The notes: a model not told the origin generated them from the letters alone. Numbered from the stretch's first letter, positions 51,675 to 55,508 are shown. The stretch is DNA of 64,000 bases from Candidatus Moraniibacteriota bacterium (GCA_052034975.1 JBPOIA010000003.1:49251-113250); one strand, 5' to 3'. Translations and numbers: made by a program.

Positions 51675-52268
51675 CTATCGGTAGGCGCTGACGCGCGAGG
51701 AGTATTGCTTGAGATTCTCCAATTGCCGGCTGTTCAGAGTCTTTGATTTCTCGATACCTTGATTGATCAGGGTTTTCGAGAATTCGATGGACGTCTCGGT
51801 CGTTACGGTGCCGCCGGACCACTTCACGTTCTTGCGAAGATAATCCTCGATGTAGACTTTGTGTTCGGCCGTCAGCGAGGAATCGGCGTTCTTCTCGAGG
51901 TAATGGGCGAGCGCACGGCGGGCCAAATGAGTTGTCCCGTTTCCGCGTTCAGCCTGCTCGATGAAGGAGGCTTCGGTCTCGCGGCTGAGTTCCGGCGTCA
52001 CGACGACACTCGGCTTCACTTCCGCTTGGACGTCTTCGAGAGCCGTGTCTGTTTCTGAGATGTCGGCGACGCCTGTCGAGCCTTTCGTTTCGAGTAACGA
52101 GCCGGTCTCATCGGAGGCGATCTGTGAGCGTTGGGAATACGAATAGATTCCGAATGCGATCGCGGCGACGATGAAGACACTGACAATGATGCGGAGATTT
52201 TCTTGGATCCACGCCTTTGCCTGATTGGCGGACGTGTCCTCGAACATCGGATCTTGCTGTTCTGTCAT
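51675..52268 (-). CDS. Hypothetical membrane-anchored protein
   Basis: The ORF-track start at 52277 is GTG; ATG is at 52268 (MTEQQDP). TM IIVSVFIVAAIAFGIYSY. Followed by a shared terminator. Confidence 0.55.
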   Translation of the reverse strand: MTEQQDPMFEDTSANQAKAWIQENLRIIVSVFIVAAIAFGIYSYSQRSQIASDETGSLLETKGSTGVADISETDTALEDVQAEVKPSVVVTPELSRETEASFIEQAERGNGTTHLARRALAHYLEKNADSSLTAEHKVYIEDYLRKNVKWSGGTVTTETSIEFSKTLINQGIEKSKTLNSRQLENLKQYSSRVSAYR

Positions 52269-52680
52269 AGTATGCACCTCTCTTTCTAGATTAAGCTGAG
52301 ATTTTTTAAAGTGCGCTTGCGTTGAAGCCGCTGGCCAGAAAACGCGTGTGCGTTTTCAGCCGTATCGACCCCCGTCTTTCCATAGTAGAGCGCACACTTT
52401 CCACTGTCAACTAGACAAAAATACCGTTTTTCAGCTTAATAAAAGGATTTTTTCCAGAGAAAAAGGAGTTTTTCCGAATGCGATAAGAAACGGCGATTTT
52501 TCATTCGTGCAAAACGGAGGCGCAGAAAATTTTTCTGTCTCGCACGGAGACGATCATCCGTTTTGTTGTACGACGCATCGGAAATATTTTTTGAGAAATT
52601 TTTTTCTATAATTTTTTTAGTCAAGAAAAAAAATTTTGCATTCATCACGCACAGACTCTTGACACGTATTCATTTTCTCT

Positions 52681-52707
52681 TTGCATTTCTGAAAAAAAGA
52701 GTATAAT
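52681..52707 (+). promoter_or_regulatory. Candidate promoter TTGCAT-15-TATAAT driving the micro-ORF leader
   Basis: -10 TATAAT at 52702-52707 is perfect; -35 at 52681-52686. About 150-nt leader with hairpins (ATACGG..CCGTAT at 52716-52736; TCGCATA..TATGCGA at about 52808-52826) before the SD. Confidence 0.5.
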
Positions 52708-52860
52708 AAAAACATACGGAAGAATTTTTTCCGTATCGCGTACAGAAACACAAATGTCGCGTTAAAAAATAAAAAAGAAATTCCTCTTCCCGGATATTCT
52801 GATTCGCATAAACCTATGCGACAGAGAAGAAGGGAAGCGGTTCTGGAGGAGGTGACTATT

Positions 52861-52941
52861 ATGGCAGCCAAGAAAAAAGTAGCGAAGAAGAAGACCGCGA
52901 AGAAGACGACCAAAAAGAAGGCCACCAAGAAGCGCAAGTAA
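52861..52941 (+). CDS. 26-aa lysine-rich micro-protein (MAAKKKVAKKKTAKKTTKKKATKKRK)
   Basis: Not in the ORF track because it is under 60 codons. Strong SD GGAGGAGGTG 7 nt upstream. Its own promoter and structured leader lie upstream, and an intrinsic terminator lies immediately downstream. Confidence 0.55.
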   Translation: MAAKKKVAKKKTAKKTTKKKATKKRK

Positions 52942-52972
52942 TGTTGCCTTCGGTTCTTTTGGTTCGACAAAA

Positions 52973-53005
52973 CAAAAACCCCGAAATCGGGGCTTTTGTT
53001 TTTTT
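52973..53005. terminator. Bidirectional terminator AAAACCCCG-AAAT-CGGGGCTTTTGTTTTTTT between the micro-ORF (+) and prmC (-)
   Basis: Hairpin plus T-tract on plus, A-tract on minus. Confidence 0.7.
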
Positions 53006-53014
53006 AAAGAAACG

Positions 53015-53920
53015 TTAGAGGACGATGACGGCGACGCGATCGCGACCGGAAAGGTCTGGGTATATGGCGATAGTAGCTTTTGGAAAATGTCCTGTGAGGA
53101 TTTTTTTGAGAAGGGGCGTTTGTTCGGGGCTGATTTCAAGGAAAAGAGTGATCGGTTGCTTATGAGAAGTCTGGCTTTTTACGCGATTATGTAAAAAGTC
53201 AGTAGGGATGGATTTTGCTTGGTCGAGCAATCGGAAATAGTGATCCAATCCTTGTTGGGTGCTTACGAGGGCGGTTTTCGGTTCGAATTGTTTCACGTCA
53301 TCTTCGGCGGACTGCCAGATTTCCTCGGAGAGGTAGGGGAGGTTGGCGGCGATGACGATCTCATCCGCTGTCGTGAGTTTTTCTCTTATCGGATCGAGAA
53401 GATTTCCTCCGTGAAACGATATGATGTTTTCAACGCCGTGTTGTTTGGCATTTTCTTGTGCGACGGCAAGTGCTTCTCTGGAGATATCGGTGGCATGGAA
53501 TTCATAGGTCGGATTTCTTATCTCTTTCGCGAGGGTGACAATAATATTCCCGCTCCCCGTTCCGATATCAGCCAAAAATACAACCTGATTTGACGATTGC
53601 CGTTTCGTGTTACAGAGCGCTTTTTTTACAATGAGTTCAACGAGGAGTTCGGTCTCGGGGCGGGGAACGAGCGTCGCGGGAGTGACGAAGAAATCTCGGC
53701 CGTAGAATTCCTTGTTCCCGACGATGTAAGCGACCGGCTCGTGCTTCGAGCGGCGGGTGAAATATTCCCGCGCTTTCATTTCCGTTTCGGTATCAAGCGT
53801 ATACTCCGGATGTGCGAGGAGGAACGTCTTGTCTTTGTCAGTCGCGTGCGCAAGCAATACGAAAAAATCCCAAGGCGCGATGACTGATTGGAATTCTTTA
53901 TGCAATTCGGACAGGATCAT
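53015..53920 (-). CDS. prmC: Release factor glutamine N5-methyltransferase
   Basis: LADIGTGSGNI (SAM binding) and AANLPYL (NPPY-like). The ATG at 53920 is 7 nt after the prfA stop. The 5' extension of ORF 53015-54148 overlaps prfA out of frame and was rejected. Confidence 0.85.
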   Translation of the reverse strand: MILSELHKEFQSVIAPWDFFVLLAHATDKDKTFLLAHPEYTLDTETEMKAREYFTRRSKHEPVAYIVGNKEFYGRDFFVTPATLVPRPETELLVELIVKKALCNTKRQSSNQVVFLADIGTGSGNIIVTLAKEIRNPTYEFHATDISREALAVAQENAKQHGVENIISFHGGNLLDPIREKLTTADEIVIAANLPYLSEEIWQSAEDDVKQFEPKTALVSTQQGLDHYFRLLDQAKSIPTDFLHNRVKSQTSHKQPITLFLEISPEQTPLLKKILTGHFPKATIAIYPDLSGRDRVAVIVL

Positions 53921-55202: not shown

Positions 55203-55508
55203 CTACGCAGCTTTTTTCACGGCTTTCTTTTCCTTTTTCGGAGCTTCTTTTTCGACTTTCACTTTCGGCACTTTCTTGCGGGCGGCCTGGGCGGCGGCGG
55301 ATTTTTCGGCGAGCTTCTTGAAACGGTCGACGCGGCCGGTGGTGTCGATGAGCTTCTTTTTTCCGGTGTAGAGCGGATGGCACTGGGAACAGATTTCCGT
55401 GTGCATTGTTTCCGTGGTTGAGCCAGTCGTAAGCACCGCTCCGCAAGAGCAGGTGATAGTGGCTTTGGTGGAATACTTCGGATGGAGTCCTTTCTTCATA
55501 AGGGTCAT
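55203..55508 (-). CDS. rpmE: 50S ribosomal protein L31 (Zn ribbon type) with Lys/Ala-rich C-terminal tail
   Basis: MKKGLHPKY..ATITCSCGAVLTTGSTTETMHTEICSQCHPLYTGKKK..GRVDRFKK. Candidate starts are 55508 and 55499. Confidence 0.9.
   Translation of the reverse strand: MTLMKKGLHPKYSTKATITCSCGAVLTTGSTTETMHTEICSQCHPLYTGKKKLIDTTGRVDRFKKLAEKSAAAQAARKKVPKVKVEKEAPKKEKKAVKKAA

Follow-up and report, generated by a model that had tools for sequence, protein, structure and literature searches.

A conserved lysine-rich micro-ORF with a three-hairpin leader in Moranbacteria, putatively encoding a small polycation

The locus considered here raises a simple question: what fills 592 bp of AT-rich, gene-free DNA between two divergent reading frames, and what would the smaller of the two frames make? 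The stretch (52269-52860) lies in a window of 64,000 nucleotides (64 kb) from a Candidatus Moraniibacteriota bacterium (Moranbacteria, a lineage of the Patescibacteria or candidate phyla radiation), to which all positions refer; a contig identical to this window is present in a Logan assembly. It is limited by the ATG of a gene on the minus strand, p197, at 52268 and by the ATG of a 26-codon open reading frame (ORF) on the plus strand, the micro-ORF, at 52861, and it contains 38.7% G+C as against 51.1% for the whole window. The stretch consists of two divergent promoters, each with a structured 5' untranslated region (UTR), around an unconserved AT-rich core (Table 1). The micro-ORF is almost certainly a real gene, conserved in Moranbacteria and independent of its neighbors, and its product is likely, by composition and analogy, to be a small, abundant polycation that binds or coats DNA, RNA or other polyanions electrostatically.

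The window peptide has a mass of 3 kDa and is built from Lys, Ala, Val, Thr and Arg only; with 14 Lys and one Arg among 26 residues, it has a net charge of about +14.5 and a pI of 11.65. Relatives were sampled with p197 as the anchor, giving 80 loci from species-level representative genomes, 50 of which were usable in that they hold a full-length p197 and enough upstream DNA. A Lys-rich ORF occurs in matching place and orientation in 44 of these 50 Moranbacteria genomes, and an ATG with GGAGGTG 4-16 nt upstream is found in all 43 relatives analysed (the ORF of L033 is interrupted by masked bases). In one further genome (L058) the micro-ORF has been relocated and adjoins prmC; it is missing from the remaining five, in which p197 is most divergent (41-52% identity) and the neighboring genes differ. 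The ORFs encode 22-60 aa, begin with MA[A/T]KKK and mostly end in KKRK, AKRK or KRRA. Over the 44 orthologues (1695 residues), K makes up 52%, A 20%, V 12%, T 9% and R 3%; S, G, P, I and L are present in traces only, and acidic or aromatic residues occur at none of the 1695 positions.

Between orthologues of the same length, codon position 3 accounts for 154 differences, the first and second positions for 29 and 24, and 122 are synonymous as against 46 non-synonymous; an identical 35-aa peptide occurs in five species, with at most five nucleotide differences, all of them synonymous. Lys is encoded by AAG in 77% of cases in the micro-ORFs and in 47% in the long ORFs of the window, and the longest A-run in the micro-ORFs is 8; this preference and the short runs fit an avoidance of slippery poly(A) tracts. 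Changes in length are in-frame gains or losses of 12-nt and 60-nt tandem units: L036 and L037, whose flanks are near-identical, encode 39 and 59 aa and are one 60-nt unit apart, the ORF of L037 being an array of 13 12-nt units and 2.7 60-nt units.

The transcription unit spans about 290 nt, comprising promoter, leader, Shine-Dalgarno sequence (SD), ORF and terminator. Its promoter on the plus strand, TTGCAT-15 nt-TATAAT (52681-52707), is conserved in relatives, in which the spacing between the two hexamers is constant. The 9-mer AGGAGGTGA of the SD occurs once in 64 kb, both strands counted, so that an earlier sequence-only reading was correct in calling this the strongest SD in the window. 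The same reading had described an AT-rich gene-free stretch of about 580 bp, the TTGCAT-15-TATAAT promoter, the 26-codon ORF with its 14 Lys and a bidirectional terminator after it, and had expected conservation of the frame in related genomes, all of which is borne out; its leader of about 150 nt is right in length (147 nt) and falls one short in its count of two hairpins. A G+C-rich hairpin with a U-run lies 3' of the stop codon in nearly all relatives, mostly within about 45 nt. Upstream of the promoter, a TTGACA (52659-52664) is perfectly conserved 37 nt 5' of TATAAT, too distant to serve as its -35 element; this distance varies, being about 29 nt in another clade, and the motif may act as a second promoter, as an UP-like element or as a site for a regulator.

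The leader folds with z = -3.8, and its three-hairpin layout recurs in most of the leaders of 43 relatives, each folded separately; distant relatives have a comparable multi-hairpin layout of different sequence, which is not clearly seen in the two most divergent (L052 and L055). Covariation was assessed over 24 species in an alignment anchored on the -10 box, with slid and shuffled controls. The three helices are 91% paired as against 22-60% in the slid controls, double (compensatory) changes occur in 14 of 22 pairs as against at most 6 in the controls, and the observed values were reached by none of 500 shuffles; RNAalifold on plain MAFFT alignments missed hairpin H1 and the hairpin of the p197 UTR owing to misalignment. 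The tip of hairpin H3 keeps U[A/G]AAC in relatives, and the conservation of its loop suggests a specific ligand, with autoregulation through the loop as a possibility.

The micro-ORF is its own transcription unit and not a leader peptide, because the next gene is usually the convergent prmC, because L002 and L011 have the whole block of micro-ORF, intergenic region and p197 inverted relative to the flanking GT4-DUF192 and prmC-prfA-rpmE, and because varying other genes intervene between it and its usual neighbors in several genomes. No co-directional downstream partner was seen in the mapped loci, and p197 is the only constant genomic partner. In L058, p197 alone is flipped, and the micro-ORF is still convergent with prmC.

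The gene has never been annotated before, and callers essentially never call the micro-ORF: of ten orthologue sequences looked up for exact matches, a collection of 15 billion proteins contains just one, and that one is an over-extended call of 41 aa. In the public assembly, too, the micro-ORF of the window is called as 41 aa (L001 5215-5340, corresponding to window 52816-52941, plus strand). This version was rejected, because no SD precedes its start at 52816, which lies within hairpin H3, and because relatives do not conserve the added residues.

Composition, expression signals and analogies are what make a polycation function likely. The sigma-70-type promoter, the leader with its 5' hairpin and the near-perfect SD would give strong expression, and hairpin H1 would stabilise the mRNA, a 5'-terminal stem-loop being a classic mRNA stabiliser. 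The peptide would bind polyanions electrostatically and non-stoichiometrically and neutralise their charge, its targets being DNA (the nucleoid) and/or RNA (ribosomes), and possibly polyphosphate (polyP); this would parallel the action of the Lys/Ala repeats of histone H1-like proteins and of the Lys/Ala tails that ribosomal proteins of this lineage bear. In Parcubacteria, uS19 carries an Ala/Lys-rich tail (PMC9297842); the Lys-rich repeats of Hc2 vary in size (PMC2848022); and polyP binds Lys-rich sequences (PMC12077175, PMC9239181). Within the window, the only such tail is the extension of L31 (Table 1); the earlier comparison had also named tails of S19 and L22, which do not lie within the window. 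By analogy, the class to which that comparison had pointed is still the reading to prefer: a small basic protein associated with the ribosome or the nucleoid.

Similar ORFs occur beyond Moranbacteria. A metagenome scan for an SD followed by MA[A/T]KKKxxKK, a pattern of roughly 51 bits for which essentially zero chance matches are expected, gave at least 120 contigs (L082-L201) with SD-led MA[A/T]KKK ORFs. Among the matches listed, to which the remainder of this paragraph refers, about 100 ORFs of 10-60 aa consist almost only of K, A, T, V, G and P; the GC content of the contigs ranges from 26 to 71%, most are without p197 or prmC, variation is again biased towards codon position 3, and genomic contexts differ between lineages. 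One lineage of eight contigs (L114, L115, L121, L162, L169, L178, L189 and L198; GC 0.66-0.70) has a poly-Lys ORF of 19-23 aa, MATKKKAAKKAGKKKAAKK, with its own SD and terminator, followed in 8/8 by a convergent ppx/gppA. In L114, L115, L121, L189 and L198 this ORF lies 100-140 nt 3' of a full or largely complete gene for polyphosphate kinase 1 (ppk1), in L169 and L178 only a short ppk1 end is present, and L162 shows no ppk1; PPK identity between contigs of the lineage goes down to 75%. Recurrent neighbors include a RecA-fold protein, a PolB-type exonuclease, a class II aminoacyl-tRNA synthetase, a CCA-adding enzyme and an unannotated protein of 443 aa. Two micro-ORFs between a LarC-like nickel-insertion gene and queC (L134 4764-4847 and L152 1292-1375) end in …GKSSCKSC, a C-terminus unlike all others. 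A dozen proteins of 84-174 aa, most of them histone H1-like, start with the same residues as the micro-ORFs, so that the micro and long poly-Lys forms grade into one another.

A collection of viral contigs gave three matches to the pattern, none of them a poly-Lys micro-ORF. Tentatively, and with more doubt than confidence, we suggest that poly-Lys micro-proteins (10-60 aa, MA[A/T]KKK, strong SD, own terminator) may be a widespread and essentially unannotated class of genetically encoded polycations, minimal surrogates of histones, protamines or polyamines, for nucleic acids and polyP; in this view, the conserved three-hairpin leader would mark the Moranbacteria member as a regulated case, and the ppk1-ORF-ppx order would point to polyP as one partner.

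Several points weigh against the polycation function of the Moranbacteria peptide. Its transcription, translation and binding are predictions from sequence. Searches of Pfam, NCBIfam, PDB sequences (E <= 10) and 5.8 billion proteins gave nothing significant, and because the peptide matches no family, its function is read from its composition; low complexity also means that homology of the Moranbacteria family to the other metagenomic poly-Lys ORFs cannot be established, and the 64-kb window contains no ppk or ppx. In the ensemble, the SD has a mean unpaired probability of 0.44, compared with 0.43 for the whole leader; as no special accessibility is predicted for it, expression need not be constitutive and may be regulated. 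The codon-position signal alone, moreover, cannot separate the sense frame from one antisense frame, because that frame shares its wobble positions.

This last point bears on the strand, and on a reading in which the functional product is the RNA, or a hydrophobic, Phe-rich protein of 117 aa from the antisense ORF at 52617-52970 (minus strand), the poly-Lys frame being incidental. The transcript is indeed highly structured, and the antisense frame is open in 35 of 43 relatives; it has, however, an upstream start codon in no more than 17 of the 43 and at best one SD-like motif among them, as against the ATG and GGAGGTG present in all 43 on the sense strand, and its start in the window falls inside the terminator hairpin. 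Changes of K to R in the sense frame would be changes of F to S or F to R in the antisense frame, a protein of 50% Phe is implausible, and Rfam gives no match for the RNA. The strand assignment thus rests on initiation signals and residue chemistry; the conserved promoter points in the sense direction as well. Antisense frames here are open by composition, as a shadow of the Lys codons and the A-rich leader, and can fool codon-position tests; we regard an RNA or antisense product as hardly credible. A type I toxin small protein was also rejected, the peptide having no hydrophobic segment and the locus no conserved antisense promoter or start. Barely conceivable is a role in regulation, as a leader peptide or upstream ORF that senses the supply of lysine or Lys-tRNA through its translation: with 54% Lys and a structured leader upstream, the ORF resembles amino-acid-rich attenuator peptides, but the gene layout already contradicts this role, as most relatives have a strong terminator close behind the stop, the gene that comes next is either convergent or unrelated, and the leader hairpins are 5' of the ORF without overlapping it.

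The main rival to a polycation function is a stoichiometric ribosomal one, in which the micro-protein fills a specific rRNA pocket in the reduced ribosome of the candidate phyla radiation (CPR), like bS22, bL37, bTHX or eL41. Its size and charge match these proteins, most relatives have rpmE-prfA-prmC and rpsB-tsf next to the gene, the expression signals resemble those of ribosomal protein genes, and CPR ribosomes are without several proteins and rRNA segments and have Lys/Ala tails (PMC9297842). We nevertheless consider it unlikely, though worth keeping in mind: the length changes between close species by gain and loss of repeats, unlike that of fixed-length micro-proteins, no ribosomal family or PDB chain matches, and the link to translation genes is convergent only and is broken in L002, L011, L039, L041, L044 and L049. 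A peptide of polyP granules, or one that binds polyP in a way functionally like AlgP, is distinctly less probable. The eight high-GC contigs, in all of which the ORF adjoins ppx and in five of which a full or large part of ppk1 is immediately upstream, speak for it, as do the binding of polyP to Lys-rich sequences and the organisation of granules by AlgP (PMC12077175, PMC9239181); that lineage, however, is not Moranbacteria, its homology cannot be tested, ppk and ppx are not found in the window, and most other contexts among the matches listed are unrelated to polyP. Export of the product, for use by an episymbiont on its host as a cationic antimicrobial or cell-penetrating peptide, is in our view very improbable. 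The membrane activity of short polycationic peptides and the host-attached life of CPR bacteria speak for it, but the micro-protein has neither a signal peptide nor a hydrophobic face, transporter or processing genes do not adjoin it, and similar ORFs are also present in a very wide range of high-GC soil bacteria that are probably free-living.

Table 1. Features of the locus in window coordinates.
Feature	Position	Strand	Remarks
p197	51675-52268	-	197-aa single-pass membrane protein; ORF and SD read directly
p197 5' UTR	52269-52375	-	about 105 nt; invariant GCUUCAACGCAAGC (52315-52328), GGGGUC:GGCUUC helix, SD AGAAAGAGAGGUG
p197 promoter	52382-52410	-	-35 TTGACA (reverse complement of 52405-52410), 17 nt, -10 TACTAT (reverse complement of 52382-52387)
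AT-rich spacer	52421-52655	none	235 bp, 35% GC, between the divergent promoters
Micro-ORF promoter region	52659-52707	+	TTGACA 52659-52664, -35-like TTGCAT 52681-52686, -10 TATAAT 52702-52707
Leader	52714-52860	+	147 nt; three hairpins, then the SD
Hairpin H1	52714-52736	+	5'-terminal; begins 6 nt past TATAAT, at the expected transcription start
Hairpin H2	52737-52761	+	directly after H1
A-rich linker	52762-52775	+	between H2 and H3
Hairpin H3	52776-52844	+	long; conserved apical CGCAUAAACCUAUGCG at 52805-52820
SD of the micro-ORF	52845-52855	+	GGAGGAGGTGA (RNA form GGAGGAGGUGA), 5 nt before the ATG
Micro-ORF	52861-52941	+	26 aa, MAAKKKVAKKKTAKKTTKKKATKKRK; TAA stop
Bidirectional intrinsic terminator	52969-53005	both	AAAACAAAAACCCCGAAATCGGGGCTTTTGTTTTTTT; common to the micro-ORF and the convergent prmC
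prmC	53015-53920	-	convergent with the micro-ORF; followed by prfA and rpmE
L31 (rpmE)	55203-55508	-	C-terminal extension of about 35 aa rich in Lys, Ala and Glu (…RKKVPKVKVEKEAPKKEKKAVKKAA)

The promoter and UTR on the minus strand belong to p197, which matches no Pfam or NCBIfam family and of which the exact sequence was not on record in a look-up; it has 1203 homologues, those named being mostly from Moranbacteria. Its AlphaFold2 model is poor (predicted local distance difference test score 57) and comprises a transmembrane helix, a disordered linker and a helical C-terminal domain. Both promoter hexamers were found by a consensus scan and are conserved in the alignment, as is the 5' UTR (85-97%), in which the GGGGUC:GGCUUC helix encloses a hairpin of variable sequence; folds of individual sequences support this structure. 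The 14-mer of this UTR, with the consensus GCUUCAACG[C/U]AAGC, is invariant; the window contains a single copy, and each Moranbacteria locus likewise has exactly one, in every case 5' of p197. The segment after it (ACUUUC; UCCUUUC in another clade) seems to covary with the SD region (GAAAGAG; GAAAGGA), and because the two seem to change together, sequestration of the SD is hinted at.

For the segment 52300-52400, the sequence-only reading had proposed either a separate non-coding RNA (ncRNA) or the leader of the divergent gene, and had drawn a closed stem, AAGTGCGC/GCGCACACTT (52310-52399). The leader proposal holds as far as a conserved promoter and a structured 5' UTR are concerned; the stem, however, exists in this genome and is not conserved, and it is not part of the p197 transcript, because its 3' arm falls between the -35 and -10 hexamers of the p197 promoter. 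Gathering and E-value scans with Rfam 15 found no family at 52100-53200, the p197 UTR included, and gave sub-threshold matches to the terminator hairpin only, which does away with a separate ncRNA of known family, in the spacer as elsewhere in this region; the Rfam matches in the window are tRNAs, all of them outside the 592-bp stretch.

The AT-rich spacer is always present in relatives, where it measures 86-664 bp, and its sequence is not conserved. A/T tracts are enriched in the spacer of most relatives; the idea of curved DNA was rejected, as these tracts show no 10-11-bp phasing on average. Two ORFs within the spacer (70 aa on the minus and 87 aa on the plus strand) were likewise rejected as unconserved, their matches being short pieces over conserved promoter and UTR DNA. 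The public assembly has a 69-aa gene called here (L001 5511-5720, corresponding to window 52436-52648, minus strand), which is unconserved in relatives. The 592-bp stretch is not a replication origin, because the GC skew keeps its sign, being positive throughout the window. Among the contigs compared, many with Moranbacteria-type synteny and a p197 60-79% identical (L002, L008, L010, L014 and others) are labelled 'uncultured Bdellovibrionales bacterium', and further Moranbacteria-type contigs are labelled 'Minisyncoccota' (one) and 'Candidatus Fimivivens' (one); these are probably cases of mislabelled taxonomy of metagenome-assembled genomes.

If made at the level that its signals suggest, the micro-protein could be among the most abundant polypeptides of these ultra-small cells. 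It escapes standard work at every turn: gene callers skip it, profile searches reject it as low complexity, and shotgun metaproteomics is blind to it because trypsin would cut it, as judged from its residues, into pieces of 1-4 amino acids. CPR bacteria have reduced ribosomes and few regulators, and a dedicated polycation would bear on DNA compaction, on the stability of trimmed rRNA and on the handling of polyP; the metagenome scan suggests that the same solution is found in many phyla, and provides a concrete set of genes for those who work on small proteins and polyphosphate.

Compared with known systems, the micro-ORF has features of several. With the attenuator leader peptides of the his, leu, thr and phe operons it shares a short ORF dominated by one amino acid and accompanied by RNA hairpins; unlike them, it has no regulated, co-directional gene downstream, and its terminator lacks a competing antiterminator overlapping the ORF. 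The small ribosomal proteins bS22, bL37, bTHX and eL41 are, like it, extremely basic, 20-45 aa long, strongly expressed (in the case of the micro-ORF by prediction) and often missed by annotation; the 26-aa peptide agrees with them in size and basicity, whereas they have a fixed length and a specific, mostly Arg/Lys-mixed sequence, and the micro-ORF family is a repeat of variable length with no profile or PDB match to them. Histone H1-like proteins (chlamydial Hc2/HctB, Pseudomonas AlgP, Bordetella BpH and the Burkholderia H1-like proteins; NF038053) have the same Lys/Ala(/Val/Thr) low-complexity repeats, vary in repeat number among close relatives as the micro-ORF family does, and are likewise expected to bind polyanions (DNA, polyP) electrostatically. 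Their profiles do not recognise the peptide (no match to Pfam HC2 or Hc1; NF038053 at E = 9.6 and 6.4 bits against a cut-off of 80), and they are 100-250 aa long, as against 22-60 aa in the micro-ORF family, which differs from them further in being unannotated and in having a dedicated leader of three hairpins. The tails of Parcubacteria ribosomal proteins (uS19, and here also bL31), finally, come from the same lineage and have the same composition (PMC9297842); they are appended to folded proteins, whereas the micro-ORF is free-standing, with a promoter and a terminator of its own.
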